Shown piece by piece: positions 5,593 to 63,410 of a DNA stretch of 64,000 bases; positions within the stretch are counted from its first letter, which is position 1; every line of letters starts with the position of its first letter. The notes beneath the pieces were generated by a model, which saw only the letters and a list, made by a program, of their open reading frames with translations, was not told where the DNA came from and did no database searches. The stretch is from Thermotogota bacterium ADurb.Bin062 (lineage in GTDB: Bacteria > Thermotogota > Thermotogae > MWEM01). The DNA is taken from the NCBI GenBank assembly GCA_002071085.1, contig MWEM01000010.1, forward strand, positions 2,047 to 66,046. Direction: 5' to 3'. Made by a program: the position numbers and the translations under genes.

Positions 5593-8500
5593 TTACAACC
5601 CGCGCCTCTCGAACTCACGCCAGGCGACGGCGTAATCGGTCTCGCGGTCGGCGAGGGTGAAAGGCGCGAAATAGCGCACCTCGCGTTCGAAGGGCCCGCC
5701 GGGCCGGGTATCGTCCTTCACCATCCTCGAACAGCTCTCACCGTCCTTCAGTTCCTGCAGGGCCTCCCACTCGGAGCGTTCCCGAAGCCCGACGCCGGTT
5801 AGCCCTTTGCTGTTCGTCCACACAATCCGACCCTTCCGATCATAGTAGGTGTCCTTCTCATACTGCCGCATCACAGGAAACTGGATCCGGTAGATGGAGA
5901 TCAGCTCCTCCAAGGTCAATCCCAGCGCCATCGCGGTGAGGACGTCGATTTCCACGAGCGCCTGGCGACGCGCGTAGTCGTAGCGCAACGCGTTGTGGCG
6001 CTGCCAGGTGGGGGTGAGGTTCCGGAAAAAATCCCGGTCGAGCCGCGGGTCCTCGCTCGTCCAGGTATCTTTCTGAAACCGGGGATCGAACAGTTCCTCC
6101 CACAACTCGGCATAAGGGGTCGTGAGACAGTTGAGGGTGAGGGCGCGTGGAAGCGCGTATAGAAAACGAGAGTCGTCTTCCAAATAGAACAGGTCATCGA
6201 CATTCCCGGTAGTAAAATCTTCTTTTCCGCTGGTTTTGACGAAAAAGTCACTGAGAAGGGAACAAGCCGGAACGAAAGCTTGAAGCAGGCGCCGCGGTTC
6301 CAAGAAAAAGGTAGATATCACGGTATGCACATGGGCTATATTTTTGGGTATCAACGCGGAGATGAAGGTTCTTTCTCCAAATTGGCTCAACCGCCTCCGA
6401 TGGATCATTCGGAAATAATCGGTCACAAGATCGGAACGGTTCCCCTGGTTAAGACTCCATTTCGCGGTCGGAATGCGGTTCTGGTAGAGCATTCTGTCTG
6501 GCGCCGGAACATAATTCGTTCTCGGCAGATAATCGTCGGGGAGTTCGGCGAGATCGAGAGGATCGTAATGACCCTTCTCTGTGCATATAGCCCTCGGCGT
6601 TTTGTAAAAAGGCGTTCCCACGTGAAAATGTGGGCCGGAAAGGATCAGTTCTTCCGCGGTCTTAGGAAAGATGGTCTCTCTTTTGATCGTGCCGTCCTTT
6701 TGGGCGTTGGTTTCATCCCACATTACAGTAGAGTGGTATTCGCCTTTGAGATCCCTCAGGCGATGCGGATAGGCGGCGAACTTCTTCAACACGCCGACGA
6801 TGGGTTGGGCGTGTACGGAGGGGAGTTTCGACTCCAAGGGGGGTGTCCCCTCCTCGTCGAAAAGTTGACTGAAGACCGTTAGCGCCCCTTCATCCACGTG
6901 CACGACCCTTAGATGATGACCTTTCAAGTTCCATTCATCCTGTTCGTTCTTGATTCCCTCAAGCGGTTCATCGCCTTGATGGTCGAAGGAATCATCGATC
7001 GTCTTTGGTAAAAATAGGTTGGAAAGACTGTCAAAAGATATCTCGTGAAAATTGGATTTGTAGATGTTAATCCCATATTTGACTCGGTGCCCAATTGGGA
7101 AAAGCATATATTGGTTTTGAAATTGAAAATGATACCGCAACCGCGGATAGAGCTCGCGGCGCAGCGCGCCGCCTTTCGCGTCGTCATACACCCCTTCCGG
7201 ATGGAGGAAGCCCTGGACGCCGTTTCGGTTCGCGAAGAGCCAGCTCTGCGGTAGAAAGCACTTGAACAGGTTCGACTGTGATCCTTGAAGGAGCGGGTAG
7301 TTCTGGACAGCGTTGAGGAAGCCCTTCGTCGCCTCCATCGTTTCATACTCCCGCACGTAGTCCTCGAGCAGCTCCGGCTGGCGCTCGAAACTGTCGTTCC
7401 GTAGTTTACTGACCTGATCGGCGGAGTATTTCCGGATCGCGAAGAGCGGTTCCGCGTCCGAGAGGATCCCGCCCTCCTCCCATCCCAGTTTGATCCAAGG
7501 GGGGTTCCCAAGGATGAGGTCGAAGCCTCCGCGCTCGTCGAAAACGTCGGCGAACTCCAGCTCCCAATGGAAAAAGGCGATCCGTCGCGCGACCTCGCGT
7601 ACCACGCGCAATGGCTCGAGCTTTTCGCAGAGCGCGTCCAAATCCACGAGGTCCAGGTCGGAAAAGAGCGTCTGCAACTGTTTTTCCGCGTCGTTCTCGA
7701 CGAACAGGGGTCGCTGCGCGGGCGCGGTCGGTATCAGATTCACTTCGAGGATGAGCGAGAGGTGCATCAGGAACTCCGAACGCGACGGCAACAGATCGGC
7801 CTTATCGATCGGCCAGAACCATAGCGCGCACCAATAGTCCATCGCTAACTTCAACCGGGCGTATGGGCCGGCGTTCTCCATCTTTTCGGTATGAAAGAGG
7901 CTCTCGTAGATCGCGTCCTTCTCTTTCGTCGTGTACGGACGGCGGCGCGCCTTCTCCTCGTGTCCAAAGATGGATATCGCGCTCTCGGTGAGCTCTTCGA
8001 CCTTTTTTCGCGCCTTCAGGTGTTTTTCCCAGAGGAGGTCGACCTGGTCGCTCAGCCGCTGCAACGTTTTGATCTCTTCCGCGTCGTAGGGTCGAGAGAA
8101 GTCTTTGTTCCACTCTTTGAACCGCTTGAGTTCTTCGGCTTTCAGTTTTTTGACGACCTTGTCCTCGTACGTCGCCATCGCAGGATCCGCGAGCAGGAAG
8201 TGATAGACGCTGCCCGCCGGTCTCGTCGTTTTCGGTTCCACGCGTTCGGGGGCGACGGTGTGCCACTGTTTCTCCTTCTTCTTCTCCCGAATCTGATCGG
8301 GACGGTAGACCTGTCGGCGCGCGCCGATCAGGGAATTGCCGTTCATCAGCTGCGTTCTGAACCACGGAACGTAGCCGCCCTTGTAGATCGTGTTCAGCCA
8401 GACGGAGACCTCCGCCAACTCCACGGCGATCGGGTTCAGGTCGATTCCGTAGACGTTCCGGTCTGACAGGCGCATCTTGACCTTCTGCTTTTCTTCCGCG

Positions 8501-10281
8501 TACCGGTCCACTGCGATCGTTTGCCCCGTCTCCCGCTGTTTCAGCTGTAAATAGGCTTCTGCGAGTTGCGTGACCGCTTCGTTGATGAAGGCGGCGCTGC
8601 CCATCGCGGGCTCGCAGATTTTGAGTTCGAGGATCTCGTCGGCGGTTTTGTCTTTCAACAGCTCTTTCAACGCGTATTTGACGAGGCATTGGGTGAGCGT
8701 TTCCGGCGTGTAGTACGAAGCGGACTTTTCTCGTTCCCTGCCCGCCAACCGGTAGATGAACGTGCCTTTCGGGTACAATTTCAGGCTGCCGTCGGGGTTG
8801 CGTACCCGCTCCGTTTCTTCGTACTCTTCGAGCCGCGAGGCGGGGACGAAATAGCCGACTTGCAGCTCATCCCACGATTCGCCTTTCGGCTGTACTTCGT
8901 AGAGGTCTTCCTCGGCGAAGAAGCCGCGGTAGCTCAGCAGCCCCTCGTAGACGGCGCCAAGCTGGTTGATCCCCAGGTGGGAGTAGGAAACGCGTCCGGC
9001 ACGCTCCCTTCCTCGCGGCCTCGTGATCGACATTTCGCGGATGACGTCGCGCAGCGTTTCGTTCCTAAAACGCGCGCGGTTTAAGAGGGGCGTTCTTTCC
9101 GGATCGAAGAGGTGGGACTGCAGCGGCGGAATCTCGAAGGCGTCCGCGCCGACGCCTTCCAAGCCGAGCGCCTCGGCGCGAGCGGTTTTTACCGTTCCGT
9201 TGCGTTTCGGATACCCTTCGTAGATCAACGAAAAGAGTTTTTTCAACGACGTGTCGAGGAAATAGCCGTTTCGACTTTCCTCGCCCTCCAACCGAACCTT
9301 GTCGACGAGGTCGCGGAGGCTCTCGAAGCTGTATCCCTTCATATAAACGTCCGATTGGACCGGCGCGTATTCCAGCTCTTTCCGTGATTCGATGAAAAGG
9401 ATGAAAAGGATCCGGTACATAAAGCGCAGGCACTCGAGGGTCAGCTGCTCCGCGAGGTCGGTATCGTACACCTTCACCTTCTGCCGCTCTTTCATATCCC
9501 GCACCGCGTCGTTGCCCAACCATTCGATGCATCGGCGCAGCGCGTATTTCAAGTCTTCGGACACGGATATCGCGTGTTTGTGGGAGGTGTCGTCGAAACG
9601 GTCCAGCAGGGGTTCCCCATCGAATGGGGCGAGGCTTGACTTGTCCAGCAAAACGGCCATCGCTTGGAAGGTCGTGTCCTCGCGCCGCGCGTAGATTTCA
9701 TCCAAAATGAACTGGAAGAACCGCTTTTCGTTCCACTTGTACCGGTCGAGCAGCGCGATCTCGCGCATCGAGCAGAGGATGACCCAACGGGGCGGCTCCG
9801 GCGCGTTGAAGATGTACCGGTTCAACGCCTCTTCGTAGTCGCAATCGGGGAAGGCCTCCGCAACGCTTTCGAGCGCGCTGCCGTTATCGGTTTCATCTGT
9901 TTCTATCAGCAAGAGGTAGGGCGCGCCGTCGGGTTTTCGCAGGATTTGCCATACAGGTACCGTGATCCCGTCGTTTCCGATGAACTCTTCATCCGCCTCC
10001 GAGAATAGAAAACCCAGGGCGCTGAACAGCTCTTTCAGAAACGAGCGCCGTATTTCACGCCGTCGGTGTTCGTCGCGCTCGCGCGTGTACTCGTCGAGTC
10101 GGTTGAAGTACGCCCTACCCAGGGACTTGATCTTGCGCCAAGGCTCCTTCTCTTCCGACTCCTGGGCCTGCGCCTTCCACATCGACAGCGCTTCTCGGAT
10201 GTTTTCCTCGAAAATCGTGCTCAGGTAGTGCGCGGTGTAGTATTCGTTCACGTTGTGGATACCGGACAGGTCGATCGCCAT
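5593..10281 (-). CDS. Large gamma-class N6-adenine DNA methyltransferase (PglX / DrmMI / Eco57I-like), 1562 aa.
   Basis: AdoMet motif I ICEPAMGSAAF (~8592-8618) precedes catalytic motif IV GNPPW (~7497-7511). N-terminus MAIDLSGIHNVNEYYTAHYLSTIFEE resembles PglX/DrmMI-type enzymes. RBS GAGGGGAG 4 nt upstream of the ATG. The upstream SNF2 gene's TGA stop lies inside this RBS. Confidence 0.8.
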   Translation of the reverse strand: MAIDLSGIHNVNEYYTAHYLSTIFEENIREALSMWKAQAQESEEKEPWRKIKSLGRAYFNRLDEYTRERDEHRRREIRRSFLKELFSALGFLFSEADEEFIGNDGITVPVWQILRKPDGAPYLLLIETDETDNGSALESVAEAFPDCDYEEALNRYIFNAPEPPRWVILCSMREIALLDRYKWNEKRFFQFILDEIYARREDTTFQAMAVLLDKSSLAPFDGEPLLDRFDDTSHKHAISVSEDLKYALRRCIEWLGNDAVRDMKERQKVKVYDTDLAEQLTLECLRFMYRILFILFIESRKELEYAPVQSDVYMKGYSFESLRDLVDKVRLEGEESRNGYFLDTSLKKLFSLIYEGYPKRNGTVKTARAEALGLEGVGADAFEIPPLQSHLFDPERTPLLNRARFRNETLRDVIREMSITRPRGRERAGRVSYSHLGINQLGAVYEGLLSYRGFFAEEDLYEVQPKGESWDELQVGYFVPASRLEEYEETERVRNPDGSLKLYPKGTFIYRLAGREREKSASYYTPETLTQCLVKYALKELLKDKTADEILELKICEPAMGSAAFINEAVTQLAEAYLQLKQRETGQTIAVDRYAEEKQKVKMRLSDRNVYGIDLNPIAVELAEVSVWLNTIYKGGYVPWFRTQLMNGNSLIGARRQVYRPDQIREKKKEKQWHTVAPERVEPKTTRPAGSVYHFLLADPAMATYEDKVVKKLKAEELKRFKEWNKDFSRPYDAEEIKTLQRLSDQVDLLWEKHLKARKKVEELTESAISIFGHEEKARRRPYTTKEKDAIYESLFHTEKMENAGPYARLKLAMDYWCALWFWPIDKADLLPSRSEFLMHLSLILEVNLIPTAPAQRPLFVENDAEKQLQTLFSDLDLVDLDALCEKLEPLRVVREVARRIAFFHWELEFADVFDERGGFDLILGNPPWIKLGWEEGGILSDAEPLFAIRKYSADQVSKLRNDSFERQPELLEDYVREYETMEATKGFLNAVQNYPLLQGSQSNLFKCFLPQSWLFANRNGVQGFLHPEGVYDDAKGGALRRELYPRLRYHFQFQNQYMLFPIGHRVKYGINIYKSNFHEISFDSLSNLFLPKTIDDSFDHQGDEPLEGIKNEQDEWNLKGHHLRVVHVDEGALTVFSQLFDEEGTPPLESKLPSVHAQPIVGVLKKFAAYPHRLRDLKGEYHSTVMWDETNAQKDGTIKRETIFPKTAEELILSGPHFHVGTPFYKTPRAICTEKGHYDPLDLAELPDDYLPRTNYVPAPDRMLYQNRIPTAKWSLNQGNRSDLVTDYFRMIHRRRLSQFGERTFISALIPKNIAHVHTVISTFFLEPRRLLQAFVPACSLLSDFFVKTSGKEDFTTGNVDDLFYLEDDSRFLYALPRALTLNCLTTPYAELWEELFDPRFQKDTWTSEDPRLDRDFFRNLTPTWQRHNALRYDYARRQALVEIDVLTAMALGLTLEELISIYRIQFPVMRQYEKDTYYDRKGRIVWTNSKGLTGVGLRERSEWEALQELKDGESCSRMVKDDTRPGGPFEREVRYFAPFTLADRETDYAVAWREFERRGL

Positions 10282-10290: not shown

Positions 10291-12504
10291 TCATTCGCTC
10301 AGGAGAAGGGCAACCACGCGGATATAGGGGTTGTCTTTCTCGAGCTTCATCGTGTTTACGAGCCAATGTTGAAATTCATTGAATATCTCATCAATCCGAC
10401 GCTTTTCTATCTCGTAGCGCTGGGCGTTCCTTCCGTCAGATCTGTCGTAACTCTGAAGCAGGTCGTCGTGTTTCTTTCGCAGCTCTTTAAGCTTCGCGAT
10501 TTCTTCATCGAGTTTCGGGGTCATCGTCTCTTCGAACTCCTCTTGCTCCGCTTTCATTTTTTCCTTTGCCAGGCCAATCGCCGTCGGCAGTAACTTAGCG
10601 GCCCAATCCGAAACTTCTGCGTTCCTCGAGGCCTGGTTCGGAAGCGCGCCTTTGAATACGTCTGAACGGAGAAAATCCTCCGGGGACAAAAACTCGGCGG
10701 GGTTATCTTCAACGAAGCGGATGACGAACCATCGGTCGATAACCGGCTCGGACTGTCGATTCGGAATCAACCCGGAGATGATGAAGACGGCGGTCCGCTT
10801 CTCCGCAAAGGGGACGAAAAGTACCGGCGCCTCCTGCCTTCCGAAAAACAGCCCCGCTTTATCGTTCATCCAATCGATGATGGGGTGAAGCGGCCAGAGG
10901 TAGTGCGAGCGCGGCCACGTGTCTTGCGCCTTCTGTCGGCTTTCTTTGATCTCACGCATCAGCGCTTTCTTGTCCGTCGTCAGGCGCAACCAGTCGTCGC
11001 TCGGAAACGCCTCCTCGGGTATCTGCGGCTCCAGCGACCGCTTCATCGATTCGGACATCCGGATTTCCATCACGTCGACTCGTGGGGCTTCCAGAGGTAT
11101 GGTTTCCCTGTTAGAGATCGTTTCCAAGAGGGTTTTCAGATAACTCGTTTCGTCAAACAGGGTCACGGGATCGGCCTTTTCGACGTTCGTCGCCTTCGCG
11201 GCTTCGTCGGGAAGGTTCCAACCCGCGTTCATCATCGCCAAAAACGGGTTTTCGGGAGCCGATAGCAGGCGCTCGAAAGCATTCACGCTGAGGCTCTTTT
11301 CGAAAACGCGGGCTACCGTCCGTTCTTCCTCTTCCACATCGTACCGCCCCAAGAGGGAGGCGGGGTCGCCGATATTCTTTTCCGCCTGCTCTTCCTTATC
11401 GATGAGTATTTCCAGGATGCGCATATCCCCGCGAATGCGCTCGTTTTTCGCTTTGGTCACCAGATAGCGGATGTCCGGCGTTTTTTCTTGGCCGTACCGG
11501 TCGATCCGGCCGTTCCGCTGTTGGAACACCATCAGTGACCACGGGATGTCGAAATGGATCAGGCGATGGCATAGAAAATGGAGGTTGATGCCTTCGGACG
11601 CCACGTCGGAGGCGATGAGGAGACGAACGGGGGAGTCGGTCGCGCCGAACTCATCGACCGCCTGCTGTTGGTCCACATCGCTCATACCGCCGTAAAGACA
11701 GGAGAGTTGGCCATCGCTCAGCCGGAGGTCCTCTTTCAGGCGTTTGGCCAAAAACCTCATCGTCTCGATTCGTTCCGTGAAGATGACGAGGCGGTCGTCC
11801 GGGCGCTCGCGATTCCAACCGTATTCGGGGCTTTGGAGCAGGCGGACCAGAAGGCGGTATCGTGAAAAATGCTCGGGTGTGATTTTTTTCAAATGGTCGA
11901 TGAGGGTCTCTAGAGCGCGGATATCGGAGGCGCTCTCGGACCGCCCCTCTTTTTTCAGTCTATTGATGCGCGCCTGCGCCGTTTTTTCGCAGGCGACCGG
12001 TGAGGAGAAGAGGGACTTTTCCAGCAGCGTTTTAAACAGCATGGTCTCCCCGCGAGCGGGGTCGATCCAGGTGAGATTGAGAGTCTCGAAAAAGTCGTAG
12101 AACGCTTCTTCTAACGGGGACGCCTCGCACGTTTCCCGACTGATCACACGTTCCTTGAAATGGGCGGAAACCTGGTTCTGCACATCCTTTTTGAATCTGC
12201 GGAAGACCATCCCTTGGATGTCCTCGCGCCGGTAGTCCTCCTCGTTGGCGATGGCGGTCGGCTCCAACATATTCATCAAGGAGGCGAAACTCTGCGGGCG
12301 GCCATCGTGAGGAGTCGCCGACAGGAGGATGAGCGTGTCCGAGCGTTTGGAGAGCAATTCGGCGAGGCGGGACCGTTGCGCTTGCGTTTTGCCACGTCGC
12401 GCGACGTTGTGCGCTTCGTCGATCACGATGATGTCCCACCGGGTTTTTTCGAGCAGCGTTCGGTACTCGCGGTCCATCTTCAGGGTGTCGATCGAAATGA
12501 TCAC
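10291..12504 (-). CDS. SNF2-family helicase (DrmD-like), C-terminal fragment (motifs II-VI). The gene is interrupted by a frameshift.
   Basis: DEAH box WDIIVIDEAHNV, LLSATPHDG, HELICc-type region ...LIASDVASEGINLH...QRNGRIDRYGQ. The frame stays open and SNF2-like (IQRIRANIPTNHNPFYYFDKVIISIDTL) upstream of the annotated GTG, as far as the T5 tract at 12615-12619. Confidence 0.75.
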   Translation of the reverse strand: MIISIDTLKMDREYRTLLEKTRWDIIVIDEAHNVARRGKTQAQRSRLAELLSKRSDTLILLSATPHDGRPQSFASLMNMLEPTAIANEEDYRREDIQGMVFRRFKKDVQNQVSAHFKERVISRETCEASPLEEAFYDFFETLNLTWIDPARGETMLFKTLLEKSLFSSPVACEKTAQARINRLKKEGRSESASDIRALETLIDHLKKITPEHFSRYRLLVRLLQSPEYGWNRERPDDRLVIFTERIETMRFLAKRLKEDLRLSDGQLSCLYGGMSDVDQQQAVDEFGATDSPVRLLIASDVASEGINLHFLCHRLIHFDIPWSLMVFQQRNGRIDRYGQEKTPDIRYLVTKAKNERIRGDMRILEILIDKEEQAEKNIGDPASLLGRYDVEEEERTVARVFEKSLSVNAFERLLSAPENPFLAMMNAGWNLPDEAAKATNVEKADPVTLFDETSYLKTLLETISNRETIPLEAPRVDVMEIRMSESMKRSLEPQIPEEAFPSDDWLRLTTDKKALMREIKESRQKAQDTWPRSHYLWPLHPIIDWMNDKAGLFFGRQEAPVLFVPFAEKRTAVFIISGLIPNRQSEPVIDRWFVIRFVEDNPAEFLSPEDFLRSDVFKGALPNQASRNAEVSDWAAKLLPTAIGLAKEKMKAEQEEFEETMTPKLDEEIAKLKELRKKHDDLLQSYDRSDGRNAQRYEIEKRRIDEIFNEFQHWLVNTMKLEKDNPYIRVVALLLSE

Positions 12505-13118
12505 CTTATCGAAATAGTAAAATGGGTTATGGTTCGTCGGAATGTTGGCGCGAATACGTTGGATCCCTCGGGAGTCCAGCCGTTTGAGCGGAATGGTGAA
12601 CCGGTCCAGAGTTCTTTTTGGAGCTGGAGCATCATACTTTTCAGCGCGACGACGAGGATACGTTTCCCTTTACCGCGCGCGATCAGCTCGCTCATCAACA
12701 CGCCGGCTTCGAGCGTTTTCCCGAGGCCGACACCGTCTGCCAGCAGAATGCGTTGACGGGGCCGGGCTAAGGCGCGCTGGGCGGGCTCCAGTTGGAAATC
12801 GATCACATTCATCGCCGCTTTGTGCCCGATGCGCAAGACGTTTCCCGGCGGGGTTCGTCGACGCAGGAGGCTCTCGATGTAGAGCCGCGACTTCCTAAAC
12901 ATCGGCGACCGGTCGACAACGAACTGGGTATCAGCCGGATCGATCACGCGTATCTCCTCGAGATCGGACAGGAACGCGGCCTCCTGCCCACGCACAAAAT
13001 CGGAAACGCCCGTCACGCTTAAAATGTATTTCCTATCCGCGTTGTAATCGGCCCGCCGAACTACCCACTCCTCACCGCGTACCTGTATCCGCATACCGGG
13101 CGCGTATATCTGTGTCAT
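12501..13118 (-). CDS. SNF2-family helicase (DrmD-like), N-terminal fragment (motifs I-Ia). Reading is lost after ...LQLQKELWT at an A5/T5 homopolymer.
   Basis: Walker A LADGVGLGKTLEAG, motif Ia ILVVALKSMMLQLQKELW. Adding one base in the T5 run (12615-12619, plus strand) joins this frame to the downstream fragment and gives a continuous SNF2 protein. Confidence 0.7.
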   Translation of the reverse strand: MTQIYAPGMRIQVRGEEWVVRRADYNADRKYILSVTGVSDFVRGQEAAFLSDLEEIRVIDPADTQFVVDRSPMFRKSRLYIESLLRRRTPPGNVLRIGHKAAMNVIDFQLEPAQRALARPRQRILLADGVGLGKTLEAGVLMSELIARGKGKRILVVALKSMMLQLQKELWTGSPFRSNGWTPEGSNVFAPTFRRTITHFTISIR

Positions 13119-13170: not shown

Positions 13171-15186
13171 CTATACCTTCCAGAAAGAGAAGAGCATGAA
13201 CACGATCAACGCCACCCATTGGCTCGCGAATACCATCAATTGAAAGAAGTAGGTGCGATCCATCTTTTCTTTGACGCGCTTCTCAAGGGCAGTTAGGCGG
13301 TCATCGAAGGCCTGTTGTTTCTCGGCCGTTTTCTTTTCCAGTTCATCGAGCGCGGTCAGAGCGCTCTCGAACGCGGCGGTTTTTTCGGTCAGGGTTGCGA
13401 TCGACTCGCTGTAATGGCCTTTCAGCAGCTTAGGTAGGGCTTCAACGGTTTTCTGCGTTAAAACCGCGAGGTTTCGGGAATCCTGGAGAGAGGCGTGGAC
13501 ATTTTCATCCATCTCTCTCAGGGCATCCAAAGTCTCCCGATTTCCTTCGCCAAACGACGCAATGAGGTTGCCAAGCTTGCGGTCAACCGTTGACACGAAT
13601 GCGGGATCCAGCCGTGATAAACCGGTTTTCTCATCAACGAGCGAGCGCAGGCGTGCGCCCAAGTCGCCGGTCGAATCGGCGAGGCGCTTCACCAAGTCAG
13701 AAAACTCGGCGTGCTCCGCGCGGTCGTGCTCCCGTTGATTTGCGGCCTCTTCGGCTAATTGCCGTATCGCGGTTTGAATTCCACCGCTCTCAGTATTGAT
13801 TTTGCTTGTGTTTTCGAGCAGTTCGGTGTATGTCGAGCTGATCAAATCGGCGAGTTCTTTCGTTAAGCTGGACAGCCCGGCGATTTCCGCGCGGCCGCGC
13901 TCCCGTTGATTTGTGGCATCTTCGGCTAACTGCCGTATCGCGGTTTGAATTCCACCGCTCTCTTCATAGATTTTACGCGTGTTTTCCAACAGTTCGAGCT
14001 GCGCTACGCCTGCCGATTCGGCAAGATCTTTCACCAGGCCGGACAACTCAGTGAGTTTTGCCAAGTCGTGCTCCCGTTGACTCGCGGTCTCCTCAGCTGC
14101 TTGCCGTATCGCGAGTTGAATTTCACCGCTCTCTTCGCTGATTTTGCTTGTTTTTTCGAGCGACTCGGTTTGTCTTGAGCTGGTCGATGCGGCAAGTTCC
14201 TTAACCAATCCGGCTAACTCGGCTACTTCTGTTCGATTCTGTTCCCATTGACTCGCGACCTCTTCGGATACTTTCCGTATCGCGGTTCGTATCACACCGC
14301 TTTCTTCATTGATTCTTCTTGAGTTTTCAAGCAATTCAGTGTGTGTGGAACTGATCAAATCCGCGAGTTCCTTCGCCAAGTCGGATAGCTCGGCGAGATT
14401 CGCGCAGCTGTGTTCTCGCTGTTTCGCGGCTTCCTCGGTTGCTTCGCGAATAGCGGTATGAAGCTTCTCGCTTTCCGTATTGCCCCTTCGGGCATTCTCG
14501 AGCATTTCCGCTTGCGTGGCGCCAAATGATTCCGCGAAGCCCTTCACCAAGCCGGACAGCCCGGCGATTTCCGCGCGATCGTGTTCACGTTGATAAGCGG
14601 CGCCTTCGGCTAACTGCCGTATCGCGGTTTGAATTCCACCGCTCTCTTCATAGATTTTACGCGTGTTTTCCAACAGTTCGAGCTGCGCTACGCCTGCCGA
14701 TTCGGCGAGATCTTTCACCAAGCCGGACAACTCAGCGAGTTTTGCCAAGTCGTGTTCCCGTTGATCAGTGGCCTCCTCAGCCGCTTGCCGTATCGCGGTT
14801 TGAATTCCACCGCTCTCTTCACTGATTTTGCGCGAGTTTTCAAGCAATTCAGTGTGTGTGGAACTGATCAAATCCGCGAGTTCCTTTGCCAAGTCGGCAA
14901 GCTCGGCGATATTCGCGCAGCTGCGCTCGCGCTGTTCGGCTGCGCCTTCGGTTGCTTTTTGTAACGCAGCGTGAAGTTCGCCACTTTCCGTATGGATTCT
15001 GCGCGTGTTTTCCAATAGTTCGGCGTACTTGGCGTTGAGCTCTCGGACGGACAGCGTGAACTCGTTCAAAACGGCAACGAGCTCGTTATCCGCGTTTCCC
15101 AGCGAAAAACCCTCCTCTAGCCTTCTTTCTTCGTTTCCATCGATATCATTCATTCGCGCCCTCCTTCGAGCATTTCTTCTATCCAT
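13171..15186 (-). CDS. Tail-anchored coiled-coil protein built of ~45-aa tandem repeats with a C-terminal transmembrane helix. The start is probably the ATG at 15153.
   Basis: Repetitive low-complexity sequence (...LAELSGLVKDLAESAGVAQLELLENTRKIYEESGGIQTAIRQLAE... repeated more than 6 times). C-terminal hydrophobic FFQLMVFASQWVALIVFMLFSFWKV. RBS GAAGGAGGG lies 5 nt before the ATG at 15153 and inside the 3' end of the upstream helicase gene. Confidence 0.7.
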   Translation of the reverse strand: MDRRNARRRARMNDIDGNEERRLEEGFSLGNADNELVAVLNEFTLSVRELNAKYAELLENTRRIHTESGELHAALQKATEGAAEQRERSCANIAELADLAKELADLISSTHTELLENSRKISEESGGIQTAIRQAAEEATDQREHDLAKLAELSGLVKDLAESAGVAQLELLENTRKIYEESGGIQTAIRQLAEGAAYQREHDRAEIAGLSGLVKGFAESFGATQAEMLENARRGNTESEKLHTAIREATEEAAKQREHSCANLAELSDLAKELADLISSTHTELLENSRRINEESGVIRTAIRKVSEEVASQWEQNRTEVAELAGLVKELAASTSSRQTESLEKTSKISEESGEIQLAIRQAAEETASQREHDLAKLTELSGLVKDLAESAGVAQLELLENTRKIYEESGGIQTAIRQLAEDATNQRERGRAEIAGLSSLTKELADLISSTYTELLENTSKINTESGGIQTAIRQLAEEAANQREHDRAEHAEFSDLVKRLADSTGDLGARLRSLVDEKTGLSRLDPAFVSTVDRKLGNLIASFGEGNRETLDALREMDENVHASLQDSRNLAVLTQKTVEALPKLLKGHYSESIATLTEKTAAFESALTALDELEKKTAEKQQAFDDRLTALEKRVKEKMDRTYFFQLMVFASQWVALIVFMLFSFWKV
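13748..14960. repeat. Intragenic tandem direct repeats (~135-bp unit with a 684-bp higher-order period) inside the coiled-coil gene. 13920-14032 and 14604-14716 are 100% identical over 113 bp.
   Basis: Direct comparison of the sequence lines. ttcggctaactgccgtatcgcggtttgaattccaccgctctcttcatagattttacgcgtgttttccaacagttcgagctgcgctacgcctgccgattcggc occurs twice. The sub-motif ctgccgtatcgcggtttgaattccaccgctctc recurs about 6 times. Confidence 0.9.
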
Positions 15187-18100
15187 TCTACCGCATATTT
15201 CCTCTTTAGTATCTCATGATACCTTTGGTTGGTGTAGTTACGCAAACAGCCGTAACAAGAGGAATCCCCCTCTTCGCCCCCACATAGGCAACCCTTTAAA
15301 AAGGACTCGGTAAGCTTGAGGATTCCCTCGAACGCTCCATCTTCCATACACCAGCGTATGTGACCGGCGCCCCCCGCGACGTTGTCGAACAGAAGCAAAT
15401 TCGGATACGACCTGCCCTCCACGGGAAAGACGATTCCATCGAGGTCGTTCCGGTCTATGTCCAGGAACAGGCTAACCCCCTCTAAAAGCGCGTAGAGGAT
15501 AGAAAGCCAGTATTCTTTCTCATCGTTTGTCCGTTTATTTTCCGGAGGGGTGATCTCCAATATTTCCGTTTTAAACTGGTAGCCGAGCGCTTTTCTACGG
15601 GCGATCTTTCCTGGGCACCTCTTGCCTTGAGGGTTATTGTGCTCTCTTTCCAGCGTCTTTTTGGCGTCGGAGTAACCGCAAGCCAAACAAACGTTGAACC
15701 CCCGCGGGCCGCCGGGATTGATGGTCACCAAATTGCCCAACATCGTTTTCAGGTGAACCGGATACCTCAGCAGGAGGGTTTTTTCTTCGATGGTGTACTC
15801 TTCTTTCCCGAGCAGGCAGCGCGTTTGAGAGAGCTGTGTCTTCTTTATCACACCCGCTTTCTCGGGCTGTCCGGAGATGAACCCAAACTCGGGGAAAAGG
15901 TAATCGCCAACGTTTAACTGACTGCCGCAAATCTTGCACGTCTTGGTTGTCGAGCGCTCCTTGATCGACACCTTCGAAAACCCGCATTTTCGGCAGAAGG
16001 CATAACTCTCCTCGATCAACGCCTTGTCGGGCACTTTCTTGATATACTGCGTCGACCACTTCTGCTTGTTCGCGTAGACGGGATTGTCCGGCGCATATTC
16101 CCAAAGGGCGGTTTTCATATCCCGCGAGAGCTCCAAGTCGTCCATCTTTTCGTCGAAGGGCGCCATCAATTCTATGACGTCGACCGGAAACCCGTAGCGA
16201 GGTAGAATCCCTTTTCCGGCCAGGTATTGCATGAGATTACGGCCTAAAAGGGTTTGCACCTTTCTATGGAGCGTGTCCGCTTTTCTGAAGGTTCTCTTTT
16301 TGGTCGCCGCATCGATCAAGTCCGTCAAGACCCGTATGTCTTCTTTCAATTCTTTGCCGATGTGGTAGAGAGAAGCGTGCGTAACCGGAGAATCGGAAAA
16401 CAGGAGGTACGCCCAGGGCAAAAATTGTTTTTGGCGCAGCTCGTGTTCGGTAGCAGGAATGGTCTCTCGTATCGTTTTGTCCAGCTCCTCTTGATGCGTC
16501 GCGACGAAGTGTTCGAAGCGCGCGACCCCTTCGAGGTCATCGTCCGTTTCCGGAAAAAAGAAGGCCTTCACGTCTTTGAAATGGTTCGGATACTGACGCC
16601 AATACTCGGCCAATGCGATCGCGGCCATATGACGATAGCGTATTTTCTCGTTTTCCAGCACAAAGGAAGGCGGGGCAATCTCGCCTTTAATCATTTTTTC
16701 CGGGTCGCTAAAGAAGTAACGGTCGTGAGGCCTTCGTAACGCGTAGGTGAGAATGAAAGCCGGATTGGAGGTTCTCCTGCCGGCCCGCCCTGCCCTTTGC
16801 AGGTAGTTCGACGCGGTTGGGGGCACGTTTTTGAGAAAGATCGTGTCCAAATCCCCGACGTCCACGCCTAACTCGAAGGTCGTCGAGCAGCTGAGGATCT
16901 GTATTTTTTTATGATAGAAGTCTTCTTGAAACTCCCGCGCTTTTTCATATTTAAGCTGGGCTGTGTGCTCTTCCACTCGAAGCGGGGAGAGCTCGAGCGT
17001 GCGGTACAAGTCTCGGTAGTGGTTAGGGCCTAACGCCGAAAAGTTCGTCTCCCTCACCGTCCCTTGACATCCATAAGAAGGACAGACCCCCCGTACCGCA
17101 AAAAAGAAAAGTTCTTTACACCGATCACATTGGTAAAGTTTCATATCCGGAGTCAGGAGCGGCGAAAGGATTTCCAGGGCGTCTATCTTCAATCGCTTCC
17201 CGCTTTGGTTGCGCTTTGTAAAAGAGGTTTCGAAACAGTCCCTCCAATCCGGATGGTCGAATTCTTTCCAAATCCATTGAAGTAACTCCGGGACCTCCTC
17301 CTTTCTCGCTTTTGGAAATAGGCGGCGTAAATAATCGGAGCGCGCGTTTTCGAAACGATAGGGGACCCAACTTTTCACGCCTGCTTGGGTTTGCGCCGAC
17401 AGCGTCATCAACGTTTTCAAATTCCTCGGCGCGAAAAACTCGTGTTCGGGTTCTATGTCCGGTAAGTAGGTCAAAGCGCCGCACTTTCTGAAACTGGAAA
17501 GTAAGAGTTGATACAGGCTGTGGGCCTCTTCCGGAGTCAAATTCCAAGGCGCGTTCAGGAGCGGGCTTCGCTTTTCGAGAGACTCGTAGAGTCCTTTGGA
17601 AAGAGGGACCTTGAAGCCCAGGAGCCCGGCGCCTTCGAGACCCGTGCGCCGATCGTAACTCATCGCTTCGTATTGTGTCCATAGGTAAGCGGTCGTCTCT
17701 ATTGTCTGCTTATCCATTTGGTAGTCTTCCGGGAGGCGTTTTTTGGCGAATTCCGCCAGGTTTTTGACGATCCAATCGTTCTCGATGGCCTTTTCTCGAT
17801 AGGTTTCGAGCGTGTTCACCAAAATGCGCCTCCAGAAGATCCTGTCATAACTCTCTTGAAGGTACGGCGCGAAGTACGCCGCGCCTTGGCGACTGTCCGA
17901 AAAGACGATAAAGCCGTTTTGCCGCTTCCTTTCTTCGGGAGACAGGCCGCTATACAGGTTCTGAAAGAGGGCCGTGGCGATAACGCTTCCCGAGGCGTCC
18001 GCCCCGTCTAAAAACCGCCAAAGAACGGGGGTTAGACTTGATTGCGCGCCGCAATTCAAGCACTTGTTCACGCGTCCTTCCTTCGATTTTGCCTTTTTTG

Positions 18101-19946
18101 CGGAAAGAAGAGCCACCCCGCAGTCGCAGGCGTTCCCGATCAAGTTTTCTTGAGAGACCTTCCCACATCGGGGACAGATTTGGAAAAGGTTGCGAGTATC
18201 CCGTTCTTCGGATGCCCCATCTTCTTCATCCTCATTTTCGGCAACCGCTCTGTCGGGTTCTATGAGGAGATACCAGTCGAGAAATTCGTCCCCTTCGGTT
18301 TGATCGTATTCGGTTTGTCTCAAAATCCCCGTGTCCTTGTCAACGGTCCCTGTCAAATAGACCGCCCCGCAGTTTTTACAGGACCCGATCTCGAAAAACA
18401 ACCGCTCTGTGGAAGAGTCGTCCATCTTCTCTATGGTTTTCCGTTCGAGTTGGAGGGTTTTATCCGGGTAGAAAGAGACGAAAGCGCCTTCCAAGGCCTT
18501 GAGAAATAGATGGTACTTCATAGAGGACAAGGAGGTTTGCGGAAAGAGGTGGCACACGAGGTTTATCAGTAGGACCAAATGGAAGGACAGTACTTCACGT
18601 TGCGCGTCTTTTGGAAAGAGGATTTCCGTTAGTTTGGAAAACTCACAAGGTCCGCTTTCCAATATTCGATTGACCTCTTTCACCTTCTCGTCGTTTTCGA
18701 CAATCCTCAGAAACGTGTCCGAGAGGTCGAAAGGCGCATTCGGTCCTTCCGCCCTTTTCAATGTCGGCGATCCGTCGGGATTGTGAGCGCGGTTTCCGAT
18801 GGTCTCCCCTATCCACCGGCTCAATTTCTCAGTCACCAAGGAGTTGGCTTCTCCTTTAAAATAGGCGATCAGATCGGTATAGAACTCCGGTGGGATAGTG
18901 ATTGGCCCGGCTTTGACTTGGAGCTCCCTCGGCGTGTAGGGCAATTTTTCGCCGACGATGATATCCTGACGCTCCGGATCGTTTTTGTCCCATTCGACGC
19001 GAGTGTGAAAAAGGTTTTGTGCGAATTGCGCGAGCTTCGAACACGCGTCCGGGGAATAGCCGAGAGAGGCGCTCGTGCCGAAGTATTGCAGGGCTTGGCC
19101 TTGCGCGCTTCGCCCGATACGGTGAGCGAGACGCCGCAGCAGCAACGCGGTTTCGATCCCTTTCGCGCCGCCGTAGGTGTGCACTTCGTCCAATATGAGG
19201 AACTTCCAAAAACGCGCGTGTTCTCCGTCGAAGAAAACGCAATCGTCCGGTCTCAGGAGCAGGTATTCGAGCATCGCGTAGTTGGTGATTAACAGGTGCG
19301 GCGGCGAGCCACGCATCCGAGCTCTACTGATGAGCTCGTTGGGTAAGGGGTCGTGCGCGAAAAGCCTCACGAATCGGCTCAGCGCGCTCTTTTCCTCTTG
19401 TTCGGTTTCCCCGGTATAGATGCCGAAGGTCACTTCCGGTATCCTTTTCAGAATACTGCGCAAACGAAGTAATTGATCGTTTGCCAGCGCGTTCATCGGA
19501 TACAGTAAAAGGGCTCTGACTCCGGGCGTCAACTTGGATTCTTCGATCTGCCTGAAAAGGTAATTCAAAACCGGGATCAGGAAGGATTCCGTTTTCCCGC
19601 TTCCCGTACCGGCGGAGACGATGAAGCTTTTTTTCTGCACAACCGCCTTTCTCACCGCCATTTCTTGATGCGCGTATAACGGTCGATCGGAAGGCAGCGT
19701 TTCTTGGTCGATCCTAAGGAAGATCTCGGAGAGGATTCCCTCCCGCACGAGCTCCCCGATCGATTTCCCAGTTCTATAGCGGGACAAACGTTCGATGTAG
19801 GGCCCTTTGCATAGCGCGTTTTCTTTTTCGATTTCTTCTTGGAATTTACCGTGTAGTTCCGGGTCGGAGAGGTGGAAGGTCGTCAGGAGATAACTACGGT
19901 ACTTTTCCAAGACGTCTTCGGTCATTCTTATCGGATTAATCGGCAC
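15150..19946 (-). CDS. DEAD/DEAH-box helicase fused to a C-terminal DUF1998 domain (DruE / DrmA-DrmB / YprA-MrfA family), 1598 aa.
   Basis: LYAHQEMAV, Walker A SAGTGSGKTESF, LLLYPMNALANDQ, DEVH box LILDEVHTY, GTSASL, motif VI LQRAGRAGRR (~16770-16800). DUF1998 signature VCLACGYS...CPGK...LLLFDNVAGGAGHI...CLCGG...CYGCL (15170-15800). GTG start with GGAGG 7 nt upstream. The gene overlaps the upstream gene by 11 nt. Confidence 0.85.
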   Translation of the reverse strand: MPINPIRMTEDVLEKYRSYLLTTFHLSDPELHGKFQEEIEKENALCKGPYIERLSRYRTGKSIGELVREGILSEIFLRIDQETLPSDRPLYAHQEMAVRKAVVQKKSFIVSAGTGSGKTESFLIPVLNYLFRQIEESKLTPGVRALLLYPMNALANDQLLRLRSILKRIPEVTFGIYTGETEQEEKSALSRFVRLFAHDPLPNELISRARMRGSPPHLLITNYAMLEYLLLRPDDCVFFDGEHARFWKFLILDEVHTYGGAKGIETALLLRRLAHRIGRSAQGQALQYFGTSASLGYSPDACSKLAQFAQNLFHTRVEWDKNDPERQDIIVGEKLPYTPRELQVKAGPITIPPEFYTDLIAYFKGEANSLVTEKLSRWIGETIGNRAHNPDGSPTLKRAEGPNAPFDLSDTFLRIVENDEKVKEVNRILESGPCEFSKLTEILFPKDAQREVLSFHLVLLINLVCHLFPQTSLSSMKYHLFLKALEGAFVSFYPDKTLQLERKTIEKMDDSSTERLFFEIGSCKNCGAVYLTGTVDKDTGILRQTEYDQTEGDEFLDWYLLIEPDRAVAENEDEEDGASEERDTRNLFQICPRCGKVSQENLIGNACDCGVALLSAKKAKSKEGRVNKCLNCGAQSSLTPVLWRFLDGADASGSVIATALFQNLYSGLSPEERKRQNGFIVFSDSRQGAAYFAPYLQESYDRIFWRRILVNTLETYREKAIENDWIVKNLAEFAKKRLPEDYQMDKQTIETTAYLWTQYEAMSYDRRTGLEGAGLLGFKVPLSKGLYESLEKRSPLLNAPWNLTPEEAHSLYQLLLSSFRKCGALTYLPDIEPEHEFFAPRNLKTLMTLSAQTQAGVKSWVPYRFENARSDYLRRLFPKARKEEVPELLQWIWKEFDHPDWRDCFETSFTKRNQSGKRLKIDALEILSPLLTPDMKLYQCDRCKELFFFAVRGVCPSYGCQGTVRETNFSALGPNHYRDLYRTLELSPLRVEEHTAQLKYEKAREFQEDFYHKKIQILSCSTTFELGVDVGDLDTIFLKNVPPTASNYLQRAGRAGRRTSNPAFILTYALRRPHDRYFFSDPEKMIKGEIAPPSFVLENEKIRYRHMAAIALAEYWRQYPNHFKDVKAFFFPETDDDLEGVARFEHFVATHQEELDKTIRETIPATEHELRQKQFLPWAYLLFSDSPVTHASLYHIGKELKEDIRVLTDLIDAATKKRTFRKADTLHRKVQTLLGRNLMQYLAGKGILPRYGFPVDVIELMAPFDEKMDDLELSRDMKTALWEYAPDNPVYANKQKWSTQYIKKVPDKALIEESYAFCRKCGFSKVSIKERSTTKTCKICGSQLNVGDYLFPEFGFISGQPEKAGVIKKTQLSQTRCLLGKEEYTIEEKTLLLRYPVHLKTMLGNLVTINPGGPRGFNVCLACGYSDAKKTLEREHNNPQGKRCPGKIARRKALGYQFKTEILEITPPENKRTNDEKEYWLSILYALLEGVSLFLDIDRNDLDGIVFPVEGRSYPNLLLFDNVAGGAGHIRWCMEDGAFEGILKLTESFLKGCLCGGEEGDSSCYGCLRNYTNQRYHEILKRKYAVEWIEEMLEGGRE

Positions 19947-22900
19947 GGGTCAACCTCCGGAATGCGAAGTATACCCTTTCTACGAGGATATCTTCGCGGC
20001 GATGTTTTTCTATCCAGTAGAGGAGTTTCTCGTCCACGTCATAATAGGCGCCGTCCCCTTCTTTGTCTATGAGAAACGGAAGGGTTTGATGATCTTCGTT
20101 AATGAAAAAGCGGACCGGGTTCGTATTCAGCCAATATTTTCTATAACCCTTGTCATCCAACCAGACGATATCGCCTTCGTAGGGCTCTCCCTCCTCAATC
20201 TTATCCGTGGGCCTGATATTCCGGATGACGCATTTTGGTCCGGCCAGGGCGTATTCTCGGTCTTGCTCATCGGTGACCTTGAGGATCTCCAAGCCCGCAT
20301 CCTTTGCAAATATATCATCTTTTGTGAAGGCAAGTGAAACATCGGGTTCGTGGAGACCGTGAAATTCCCGCGCGACCCGGTTACCAACAACCCATTCGAC
20401 GGTGAAAGGGCCGGAAGGAAATGCGCGCGTTTGAACCTTAAAACTGTACTCGCTCCGCCCAGCGTCAAGAAAGGCTTCGAAGTGTTTATCACCCTCAGTG
20501 GAAAGGCGCAAGCGCAGTCCGGAGGGGTTGTCTTCACGAGACCAGCGGCAATGGACGTGAGTCACCTGCGCGTCGGCATCTTCTTGGAGCGCGACTTCGG
20601 CATCCGCGAAGGGGACGCGAAAGGAAAAGGTTGCGATCGGTGGTGTCTCGGCGTATCGAAGCCCCCGTTCGTAGATAGAAAAAGATTGCTCGGCGGTCTC
20701 GCTGGCGCGTATGTTGTCGAAAAAAGGCCGCATGTCGACGCTTAATCGATCCTTCTTCACGGAGCAACGAGTGATTTGCCCCGTTTGATCGTGTCGGCAT
20801 TCGAACTGTTTTCCCCTCAAGTCGTACGGGAGTCGGAACTCTTTTTTAAGGGGATAGCCGTAGAAGATCGGGGAGTACTCGGATAGGGATTCTGAGGTGT
20901 CTTCATCGACGAAGGGCCTTTCGAATTCGCAGGAGAACGTTAATCCATCCGAGCCGGAGGGGTTGAGCGTCAGAACGGCTTGAACCGTTTGAACCCCGGG
21001 GTCTATACGACAACGGATCTCCATGCCCCCCTCTTCCGACTGGATTTCGGAAGGATCGAGCGCGGGAAAAGAAAAATGGATTTCGTCCTCCGCCTTTATT
21101 TCCAAGCGCCCCGGCGCGTGGAGGGACCTATCCTCCGAAGACCAGCGGAATCTAAACCGCGGCAGCACCCAGAAGACCATATCGATCGGAAGCCTTTTGA
21201 CCCCGAAGATAGAGATGCGATACCGACCATAAGGGGAATCGAAAAATTCCGCGGGGCATACCTCCATAGACTCGCTCGGGCTATCGCTTTCCGCGGGGTT
21301 GTTGGCGACTTGAAAGGTTGAAACGCGTGAAGGGCCTGATTCGAGAACAACCTCCATTTTCCAGGCGCCCGCATCGCCGGTGGCCGGAGGCATCCGTATC
21401 GTCGGGCAACGGAAATAGACGTTCTCTCCACGCGCCGTGACCCCTTCGACAGGACTTTCGCTGAGCTTTCCATAGAAACCGGCCCGATAAAAAGCGAGAC
21501 TTCCACCGGTCGGGCTTCTGATTTGGAAACAGTCCGTATCCGACAGATCGAGAGCGGCGTAGTCAAAATTCGGGGCTCCATACCATCGGGTTCTGTCTGA
21601 GACCGCTTCGGCCGGTGTGATTTCGTTCTCGCCGGACAGAATGAGGTAGAGGTAGTCGGTCGCATACTCACGCTTCTTCAACGCCTCCCCGTTCTCGTCG
21701 AAGACCAGTAACGGGTACTCCTCACAGAGCTGTGGTTTTATGGAAAATTCGCGGATGGGCTCTTTGCTGTTCATCAATCTGTTCACTTTAAAGGCGCGGA
21801 TTTCTAGTGTACCGAAAAACGGTGAAATTTCGCACCGTTCCCTCTGGGTTTCTATTGAGCCGCCCTGATTAAAAAGCGAACATTCCCTGACAAAGACCTC
21901 TCGGTTTGCTTTCGCTTCCACGACGGACAGAAAGATTTTTTCTTGTTCATCAATCTCATTGAGAACGATTGGGGGGATAACGAGCCACAGCCGCTCCAAA
22001 TCGAGGTCCAACTCAAGGTAGGGAGCGCTTTGCCTGGGTGTCTGAACTATGTGAGTCCGATGTTCTATTTCGCTTCTTATGCCTTTTCTCAGCCTTTTTG
22101 AGAGTAAGGGCCACCGGTCAGCTTCATCGAGAAGCGCCTTGTCGAGGCCTTCGAGCGCGCGGATATACTCGATGGTCGACCTTATAAAAATATGCGCATC
22201 GTTTCCGGATTGGGAGAGGAAACACCGTGTTCCCTCGCACAAGAACCTATTCCTTGTAGCATCCCCAGATTCTCCGAAAGGAGGTTCTGCTGAATCTCCA
22301 AAAGGAGGTTCTGCGGGAATCTCTTGGTCTGTGAATAGAGAATCCGCGAAATCGAAGAGCGCCGTTTCTGAGAGGTTCAAAGCATCGGGGTAGTGGTTTT
22401 TTATGAAATGGTACAGGGCCTTCACGACATCCCAACTGAGAGGTCCCGCGTGCTCTTCCTTCCATTCGCGTACCACCTCGAGCTTCGCGCGAAGGTCATC
22501 CAAAGAAATCGGCTTCCCCGGAGAGAGAAGGTTTCGCACGCGGTTGATCCGGCTGACGGCTTCTTTCAATACGACATATCGGTCGATCGCTCTTTGATAG
22601 GTGTCTTTCAATCGAACGAGGCGCGTCCGATGTCTGTCTTCTTCGACGAACGGCGAGTCCGCTAAAAAGACGACCAATTCTTTCTTCAACTGGTACCGGG
22701 AGAGCTCGCGCGCTTTTTCCGCCCAGCGATTCGGCAATTCCTCTTCGATCACGCGCATCATCATAGGGTTATCAAGAAATTCGGTGTAATAGGAGGTCGC
22801 CTCCGGCGCCTCTCTGTACAACATAATTAAAGGCCAGTAAGCCAATGATTTTTCCAGAGACTTACGTAACTGGGCGGTTTTCTCTCTACCCGCGATTACT

Positions 22901-59900: not shown

Positions 59901-60002
59901 GATCGCGTGGGTTTTTCCGGTACCGGCGCCCGCGCTGACAAAAAGGCTCCCTTCGGTTTCTAGTATCCTTTTTTGACTCGCGTTAAGGCCTACCTCGCTC
60001 AC
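56949..60002 (-). CDS. addA: AddA-type helicase-nuclease (UvrD/PcrA-like SF1 helicase with a C-terminal RecB-family nuclease).
   Basis: Walker A VSAGAGTGKTH, UvrD-type motifs, and C-terminal ...HILDFKASR nuclease motif. GTG start with GAGGAGG 5 nt upstream. 4-nt overlap with addB. Confidence 0.75.
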   Translation of the reverse strand: MSEVGLNASQKRILETEGSLFVSAGAGTGKTHAIVEKFFALIQDPLKRVDPLSVAAITFTKKAAGEMKERIIRHLEDLSGKPNMATEAERILNAMPFVWIDTIHGFCSRILREFSLEMNLDPSFEVLNEYQKERKIRGIVLRELDQEIGGKKPEEVKLLLNQFRLDGLIDLFIQALSRKRFEVWDIFTPRAGESEPTDEVAKAFGNLFKRILAVYEEECARDNAVDFEALLLHTLRLLDEHEGVREHLAERFHAIIVDEFQDTNVLQKRILDRFAECGKTTLIYVGDGKQSIYRFNGAEIGVFNVTREQFDETRYVTLEENYRSHEKLIDFYNRFFPKVFGNQPDRYGIAYEPLTPGKTDKEDRFSAHAGRVRLLPKAKDFAEECFNLCAYITHLIDKEHRQPKDFAVLLRAMTAVDTLTAVLERYGLPYYQVGSTNFYRRPEILSLLSLVRALYNPADEYALVQLLSSYLSPFCEEEILEMRQRDRRFLYTGLKAYVKEIGSTDSQKGLFLERIEGLRAHLPLRSIGELLREAIQDFDYDLYLATLPNGPKAWLNVKKLLEIADGFTGNASTREFLEQMAQENVIKEEEAAIESEHDDVVRVMTIHKAKGLQYPIVILPNLGFNQSPRSHIFLTDWENRLIFFSGDAEGEAGEDPVDQEDNAVRASETAKDYSELKQKEKAREYEENKRLLYVAMTRAKEEIVLSFSERPRNRQNRPAPPKKGFLPLLHTGGLIVPGTEWAPIEESEYAGLLTPAPQDLKTIRAVDQAVEPSGPSTGETVERIPQTAFPLEDRPYQKYLSPSLLTSVEKTDAQATRRILWRHEEKKTDDLLPELFKLSFGAPGYTEEVGTLVHKVLERYGDKDLSGITRETVDRLNRSFGFPDSVVEATEAKIRRVAGHPLFDDLRKAHPCFSEKPIRKLRGRYILSGTIDKLYFLDGKWHILDFKASRANPQYLERYRFQMRFYLFLVKGLVQPEPEKATLFFLDERETMDVVWDAGFEEELDRRIGDYERAFVN

Positions 60003-63241: not shown

Positions 63242-63351
63242 CCGAAGTTTTCTCCTTTGTTTTGTGTTTATCGAAAAACGCCGCTTTTTGTTAAGGAATC
63301 GGTCTTGAGTTTTCGTATCATTATACCATAGCCTACGGCCCACACAGGATG

Positions 63352-63378
63352 TTGACAAACGCGTGTTCATGGTATGAT
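63352..63378 (+). promoter_or_regulatory. Promoter of the alpha-amylase gene: -35 TTGACA and an extended -10 TGgTATGAT.
   Basis: TTGACA at 63352-63357, a 15-nt spacer, TGgTATGAT at 63370-63378, followed by RBS AAGGAGGGAGG and the ATG at 63411. Confidence 0.5.
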
Positions 63379-63410
63379 TCAGAGACGCGCAACAAAAAGG
63401 AGGGAGGAAG

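Follow-up and report, generated by a model that had tools for sequence, protein, structure and literature searches.

In a Thermotogota lineage of anaerobic digesters, the armA gene of an ARMADA type II operon has most likely suffered a recent loss-of-function deletion, and the broken copy is now the majority allele. In the window, namely the whole stretch of 64,000 nucleotides analysed here, a CCC run has lost one C; the deletion is genuine and heritable and shifts the reading frame after Thr172. As judged by homology, the broken gene is armA, whose product is a RapA/BrxHII-like SNF2 ATPase and which heads an ARMADA type II operon (armA-armB-armC-armD), and our analysis indicates that the operon in the window is most likely a naturally disabled ARMADA type II. 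The frameshift itself is an ordinary pseudogenising mutation, a natural knockout in a defence gene. Intact, broken and possibly repaired armA alleles are present on one background across public digester metagenomes, and these coexisting alleles offer a cheap way to ask whether the loss of ARMADA is favoured in the field.

Split reading frames of armA

The gene lies on the minus strand in two pieces, which are listed below together with the two sites discussed in this section.

12501..13118, minus strand: armA N-terminal fragment, an open reading frame of 205 aa; residues 1-172 are authentic ArmA, Walker A K134 included
10291..12603, minus strand, -1 frame: armA C-terminal part, ArmA residues 173-942, with motif Ic, DEAH D234, Helicase_C and the C-terminal region
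12603..12604, minus strand: site of the 1-nt deletion, ACC-GG in place of the intact ACC CGG (Thr172-Arg173); the C3 run becomes C2
12615..12619, minus strand: A5 run (T5 on the plus strand), encoding Gln-Lys, equal in length in all intact alleles; not the lesion

The 205-aa frame contains the N-terminal domain, Walker A (GLGKT) and motif Ia. After residue 172 it continues for 33 out-of-frame codons and then ends at a TGA (...KELWTGSPFRSNG...SIR, stop); the out-of-frame tail of this frame (13118..12501, minus) also reads …LQLQKELWTGSPFRSNG…SIR, stop. The -1 frame is open from 12669 and runs via the DEAH motif down to 10291. Gene callers let the second piece begin with the first start codon of its reading frame, a GTG at 12504, which gives a protein of 737 aa, and this GTG overlaps the TGA stop of the first piece (GTGA, 12501-12504). 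Upstream of the GTG, 34 protein letters are readable in the -1 frame, and this translation bears out a preliminary description of the window, which had noticed SNF2-like sequence ahead of the annotated start. By Pfam, SNF2-rel_dom and Helicase_C are found in the second piece only. When one base is added, the two pieces become one protein of 942 aa, equal in length to intact homologues, and a search with this repaired protein returned thousands of single-chain homologues of 925-969 aa.

In the public databases the fragments are deposited as two proteins rather than one pseudogene (HNY81564.1 and HNY81565.1 at NCBI, with their equivalents), the first named 'hypothetical protein' or 'HepA' and the second 'helicase-related protein' or 'RapA'. 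One armA pseudogene should replace the two deposited proteins.

Site of the lesion

The deletion was located by DNA alignments with intact alleles on other contigs (L001-3, L040, L042, L043, L055 and L056). One C has been lost on the minus strand, ACCCGG having become ACCGG at window positions 12603-12604 (a G on the plus strand), and the sole difference at the site is GGACCCGG in the intact alleles versus GGACCGG in the window. The break of the SNF2 gene by a 1-nt frameshift, as claimed in the preliminary description, is thus upheld by the reading frames and by the DNA of relatives, while the position given for it is not. That position was the T5 run at 12615-12619, and five bases stand there in every intact relative: CCAAAAAG is read with five A in the window and in every aligned intact allele, and the missing base lies 11-12 nt downstream of the run. 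With the run length unchanged, the homopolymer mechanism proposed for the lesion falls as well. Comparison with closely related strains, suggested earlier as a check, showed the gene intact in the relatives and spoke against the homopolymer site; the lesion sits away from the homopolymer that catches the eye.

Around the site the intact ArmA reads ...LQKELWTRFTIPL..., and the motif KE[LMF]WxRF is present there in 117 of 120 homologues. The repaired peptide proposed at first has four residues wrong and would remove the Trp found in those 117 of 120 homologues; the correct reading in its place is LQLQKELWTRFTIPL. An ArmA homologue with 98% identity (P0001) is encoded on three JGI contigs. Compared with relatives 95-98% identical, the armA deletion is the only uncompensated 1-nt coding indel over about 20 kb.

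Occurrence of the deletion in public assemblies

Public assemblies contain the truncated 205-aa product, residue for residue, in 191 indexed blocks, on contigs of up to about 197 kb from ENA, NCBI and JGI. The identical ArmB is indexed in 143 blocks, and in all 24 contigs read for it the SNF2 gene is split into 205 (or 197) and 737 aa. At the DNA level, ACCGG is carried by 11 of the 11 contigs inspected, which stem from at least 10 different assemblies and include two SPAdes-style contigs (NODE_34, cov 20.5; NODE_44, cov 48.6). In the clusters listed, truncated products occur on roughly a hundred contigs versus a handful for the in-frame alleles. In addition, metagenome contigs were scanned for an exact pattern open to both alleles. 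Three contigs proved intact and one (L041) carries the deletion; L041 matches the window over 3.26 kb with 0 mismatches, and its 100-bp divergent tail was discarded, as this 2.7x contig appears to be chimeric at that end. Among the species-representative genomes of GTDB, no relative above 58% identity was found. In NCBI records the source organism is given as Thermotogota bacterium, e.g. ADurb.Bin062, and one ENA record is labelled anaerobic digester metagenome. From these occurrences we infer that most members of a near-clonal Thermotogota lineage, widely sampled from anaerobic digesters, carry the deletion.

The deletion contigs form three haplotypes, with 0, 13 or 29-30 SNPs per 20 kb relative to the window. 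All three carry the deletion, which implies that it has been inherited across a slightly diversified lineage. With L040 as outgroup for polarising the haplotypes, the 13 sites did not agree on one state.

The SNPs that separate the haplotypes are all confined to two short tracts, 29 in about 800 bp of armC (window 2734-3525) and 13 in about 1.7 kb of the DruE-like helicase (window 17469-19139), and roughly half of them are non-synonymous. These tracts in both YprA helicases resemble imported recombination patches or hypervariable regions. The armA gene is invariant among the haplotypes, and so is armB save one silent SNP in one contig.

Other alleles and age of the mutation

All relatives at 78-98% identity have the intact armA allele, and it is also found in the same lineage as the deletion. 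The repaired window sequence exists exactly, as P0122, on four contigs of this lineage, L055 being one of them; L056 has the intact allele too. Over 22.8 kb, L055 equals the deletion carriers of the 13-SNP haplotype (L045-type) except for the extra C. Two partial NCBI proteins likewise read through the site.

For the age of the mutation, the repaired window gene was compared with the 98%-identical intact gene, giving a dN/dS of 0.07 for armA (0.015 for the N-terminal and 0.11 for the C-terminal part). Such a value means that purifying selection acted on armA during almost the whole of that divergence, and hence that the break is recent. No further disabling changes in armA were seen among the carriers compared. 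Purifying selection relative to the nearest relatives, together with an allele that differs only by this base, leads us to infer a recent mutation. Another candidate, P0146, was considered as a second independent armA frameshift and rejected as assembly noise, since it comes from a 2x-coverage contig in which the neighbouring genes are shattered too; P0143 and P0148 were set aside from the allele comparison for the same reason.

A third allele, ACCGGG, is present on a single contig (L058:1149-1220, the site corresponding to window 12600-12604). It is in frame and replaces Arg173, conserved in 117 of 120 homologues, by Gly. The contig comes from the Logan assembly of one SRA run, and over 13.5 kb it differs from the window nowhere else. 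By its sequence, this allele could have arisen from the deletion through a repairing +G insertion or from the intact allele through a C>G substitution, being one step from either, and it may mean that the armA frame can be restored.

Taken at their most eventful, the three alleles would record an ARMADA switched off and then pseudo-reverted in nature, the loss of ArmA being selected in digesters, perhaps for reasons of cost or autoimmunity, and occasionally selected back. We hold this to be rather unlikely; if it were true, the lineage would offer a natural allelic series for measuring what a YprA-family defence system costs and what it gains in fitness.

A related and likewise unlikely explanation, which we rate slightly lower, is a reversible on/off switch, in which gain or loss of one base in the CCCGG/CCGG/CCGGG tract keeps mixed defended and undefended subpopulations. 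Its attraction is that three alleles (ACCCGG, ACCGG and ACCGGG) occur at one spot in a near-identical lineage, the intact allele and the deletion even on one haplotype, and that ACCGGG alters an Arg conserved so widely that a +G repair is easier to accept than a tolerated substitution. However, runs of 2-3 bases slip very rarely and the known contingency loci have much longer tracts; the long, frequently varying simple-sequence tract of a phase-variable locus is absent here, the tract being of 2-3 bases. Moreover, the deletion dominates, with a handful of intact contigs and one with ACCGGG, and ACCGGG is one substitution from the intact allele; a single mutation and clonal spread account for all the observations.

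The operon as ARMADA type II

In ARMADA type II an SNF2 protein (ArmA) is combined with a methyltransferase of the PglX type (ArmB), a YprA helicase bearing a nuclease at its C-terminus (ArmC) and a helicase resembling GajB (ArmD), and the system is often located behind Druantia III (Bell et al. 2025, bioRxiv 10.1101/2025.09.15.676423). In this definition ArmC bears DUF1998 and a C-terminal nuclease extension (Vsr/EEP), and the N-terminal extension of ArmD is RelE-like. In E. coli the system is known in NCTC 12900, ATCC 8739 and O157 EDL933/Sakai (10.1101/2025.09.15.676423; mBio 2026, PMC13463889), and phage resistance that needs all four arm genes is known for the E. coli ARMADA II systems only (PMC13463889). 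Besides armA, the operon comprises the following genes.

5593..10281, minus strand: armB, PglX/type-IIG-like N6-adenine methyltransferase, 1562 aa, intact, GxG and NPPW kept
1..5493, minus strand: armC, YprA-family helicase, 2097 aa in full contigs, its last 267 codons lying beyond the window start
L053:21116-23281, just outside the window: armD, GajB-like UvrD helicase, 721 aa

The gene tables of full contigs (L048-L053) give the order 1182-aa protein, 1598-aa protein, 671-aa protein, SNF2, methyltransferase, 2097-aa protein and 721-aa protein, and they confirm the strict order armA-armB-armC-armD. Because the window start falls inside the 2097-aa gene, armC had been missed by the listing of open reading frames; the plus-strand frames at 868-3657 are shadow frames inside armC, without Pfam matches, and were rejected.

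The proteins were compared by BLASTP with the E. coli reference locus (O157 Sakai NC_002695, ECs_5259-5264). Repaired ArmA is 45% identical to ECs_5261 over residues 3-939 of 942; ArmB is 45% identical to ECs_5262 end to end (1652 columns); ArmC is 35% identical to ECs_5263 (1-2087 to 1-2101), a far better match than to DruE; and ArmD is 44% identical to ECs_5264, again end to end. Repaired ArmA matches the PADLOC models BrxHII and DrmD. In ArmB the motifs AMGSAAF and GNPPW are conserved, with Pfam matches to Eco57I, N6_Mtase and MmeI_Mtase. ArmC has the domains DEAD, Helicase_C and MZB and continues for about 460 aa beyond the last of these, and in ArmD the PADLOC match to GajB begins at residue 259, residues 1-258 forming an N-terminal extension. 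All residues mutated in the E. coli ARMADA study are conserved in the window proteins.

Consequence of the deletion

As to the effect on the protein, loss of the C shifts the armA frame after Thr172 and leads through 33 wrong codons to a stop, the break presumably falling inside RecA-like lobe 1, between Walker A (K134, on the N-terminal fragment) and Walker B (D234, in the C-terminal frame). Since Walker A and Walker B are on separate pieces, it may be expected that no single polypeptide forms the ATPase site. In E. coli ARMADA II, defence is lost when armA is deleted and likewise with the substitution K136A or D236N, and strains lacking armA are viable, with the system on a plasmid and in the native host (PMC13463889; 10.1101/2025.09.15.676423). 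On this analysis ArmA is most likely inactive, and the ARMADA defence with it, an interpretation drawn from E. coli homologues at 45% identity. The genes armB, armC and armD are intact and keep all tested catalytic residues, and the Druantia-like module is intact too; the preserved residues would fit a recent event, and would also fit a system that is still working somehow. The loss of armA may have been selected, through cost or self-damage, or may have hitch-hiked in a successful clone, and the data favour neither; the silencing of a costly system, put forward in the preliminary description, is likewise a conjecture.

A system still at work would be conceivable if both fragments were made and assembled into a functional split ArmA, which we regard as improbable. 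The stop of the N-terminal fragment overlaps the GTG of the C-terminal frame (GTGA, 12501-12504), a layout able to couple translation or to allow re-initiation, and armB, armC and armD are intact with their catalytic residues conserved. On the other side, the authentic residues 173-205 would be missing from the product, and these lie within a contiguous RecA-like lobe 1 that aligns unbroken to RapA; none of 120 homologues is split, all being 925-969 aa long; and the GTGA arises from ordinary codons (Lys-Val-Ile) that are found in the intact alleles too.

Still less probable, in our judgement, is that programmed -1 ribosomal frameshifting at CAA-AAA-G yields the full-length protein, much as the repair proposed at first would have it. 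If tRNA-Lys slipped by -1 on the A5 run, translation would yield 942 aa, and the run is conserved. Nevertheless, CAAAAAG is no X-XXY-YYZ heptamer, no RNA structure was found downstream (z = +0.69; 145 of 200 shuffles fold as well), and CCAAAAAG occurs at chance frequency, 5 times in the window versus 3.9 expected. The product would have RTLD for the conserved ELWT and would lose the Trp of 117 of 120 homologues, and as all relatives and some members of the same lineage encode ArmA in one frame, such recoding is not ancestral. A rare -1 slip at this place could give traces of the full-length protein.

The last explanation, an error of consensus, sequencing or assembly in an organism whose gene is intact, is hardly credible: the lesion does lie in a short homopolymer and a few contigs of the same lineage do show the intact CCC, but all inspected contigs, drawn from at least 10 separate assemblies (JGI, ENA and NCBI; MEGAHIT-style k141 and SPAdes-style NODE), share the deletion, those at 20x and 48x included, the exact truncated product is in 191 blocks, a 3-base run is no error hotspot for short-read data, and indels are not rife in the assemblies, as the intact long neighbouring frames (1562, 1598 and 2097 aa) show. 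Of the two origins weighed in the preliminary description, the genuine inactivating mutation is supported as genuine by all 11 contigs, some at 20-48x coverage, and a sequencing or assembly error is effectively excluded by recurrence, coverage and the indexed blocks.

The upstream pair and other neighbours

A Druantia-III-like pair stands directly and co-directionally upstream of ARMADA II, the whole array covering window 1-23484 on the minus strand together with L053:21116-23281.

15150..19946, minus strand: DruE-like YprA-family helicase, 1598 aa, with DEAD, YjiV_N, Helicase_C and MZB/DUF1998
19936..23484, minus strand: protein of 1182 aa without recognisable domain, occupying the place of DruH in Druantia III
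13171..15186, minus strand: coiled-coil protein of 671 aa whose tandem repeats, about 7 of 57 aa each, span DNA 13665-14850, and which has a membrane helix at the C-terminus

E. coli O-island 172 has a corresponding array, druHE-armABCD, which the pair and the operon mirror in a Thermotogota MAG. The 1598-aa helicase has strong matches to DruE models (1e-170, PADLOC) and no C-terminal nuclease extension, since it ends right after MZB; in BLASTP and PADLOC searches its 1182-aa partner showed no DruH similarity. Druantia type III is defined by DruH and by DruE with a C-terminal PLD nuclease, and the pair resembles it in part; it may belong to the nuclease-less 'Druantia III-like' branch described by Bell et al.

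The 671-aa repeat protein, wedged between the Druantia-like pair and armA, has no family match and varies among strains, with 86-98% identity, an 18-nt indel and another start call giving 660 aa. Between this gene and armA, at window 13152, the related contigs L001-3, L040 and L042 have an extra 882-bp segment (L001:426-1307) with a GC content of 46% versus 56% in the flanks. It encodes a protein of 253 aa with one transmembrane helix and no family match, and it is missing from the lineage of the window and from L043.

Further along the window, an AddA/AddB-type helicase-nuclease pair (UvrD and PDDEXK_1; PDDEXK_1) is encoded at 56949-63508 on the minus strand; this pair and the chemotaxis, RtcB and two-component genes of the window mark an ordinary chromosome rather than a mobile element. 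Elsewhere, OY760427.1, a Rhodothermales MAG (L016, L017 and L036), has three SNF2-methyltransferase modules within about 100 kb of one chromosome.

Comparison with known systems

The closest solved structure to ArmA is that of E. coli RapA (HepA), to which residues 104-290 align contiguously (E = 6e-30). RapA, the RNA-polymerase-associated SNF2 ATPase, shares the RecA-like lobe 1 with ArmA, and the names RapA and HepA appear among those of the NCBI fragments; however, the similarity is limited to the ATPase core, and the context here is a defence operon, not transcription.

The gene had been described as drmD of DISARM. DrmD (PDLC02621) is the best PADLOC model for both SNF2 fragments, and the methyltransferase matches DrmMI models; these matches explain the earlier label, and they are what the locus has in common with class 1 DISARM (drmD-drmMI-drmA-drmB-drmC). 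The homology of ArmA to DrmD and of ArmB to DrmMI is recognised (Bell et al. 2025, bioRxiv 10.1101/2025.09.15.676423), so that the succession of a DrmD-type SNF2 and a DrmMI-type methylase found here is common to ARMADA and does not discriminate. The methyltransferase scores 907 bits with type IIG models versus 193 bits with DrmMI. Separate DrmA and DrmB genes were not found, both YprA-type proteins of the locus combining helicase and MZB/DUF1998 in one chain, and Pfam and PADLOC scans gave no match to the PLD protein DrmC (pfam13091) in any locus protein, although drmC is dispensable in characterised DISARM systems. The locus differs from class 1 DISARM in that helicase and DUF1998 are fused in the 2097-aa protein, in that it has no PLD DrmC and in its GajB-like fourth gene. 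With four genes that are end-to-end homologues of armABCD, the assignment to DISARM is not sustained. It had further been argued that drmD is required: for class 1 DISARM only a combined deletion of drmD and drmMI has been reported, which is thin evidence, while the equivalent statement holds for E. coli ArmA.

Compared with ARMADA II of E. coli, the operon differs in its frameshifted armA, in its host, a Thermotogota MAG and not a member of the Pseudomonadota or Actinomycetota, in an upstream helicase without the nuclease domains of DruE whose partner is without DruH similarity, and in the extra gene for a repeat-rich, membrane-anchored coiled-coil protein between the two modules. The two systems agree in their four genes, in the order of these genes and in the sizes of the products (942/952, 1562/1644, 2097/2113 and 721/704 aa), which are 35-45% identical end to end with Walker A and B, GxG and NPPW conserved. 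In both the operon stands co-directionally behind a YprA-helicase pair, as it does behind Druantia III in E. coli, and the recently described pairing of ARMADA II with Druantia is thereby extended from E. coli to Thermotogota.
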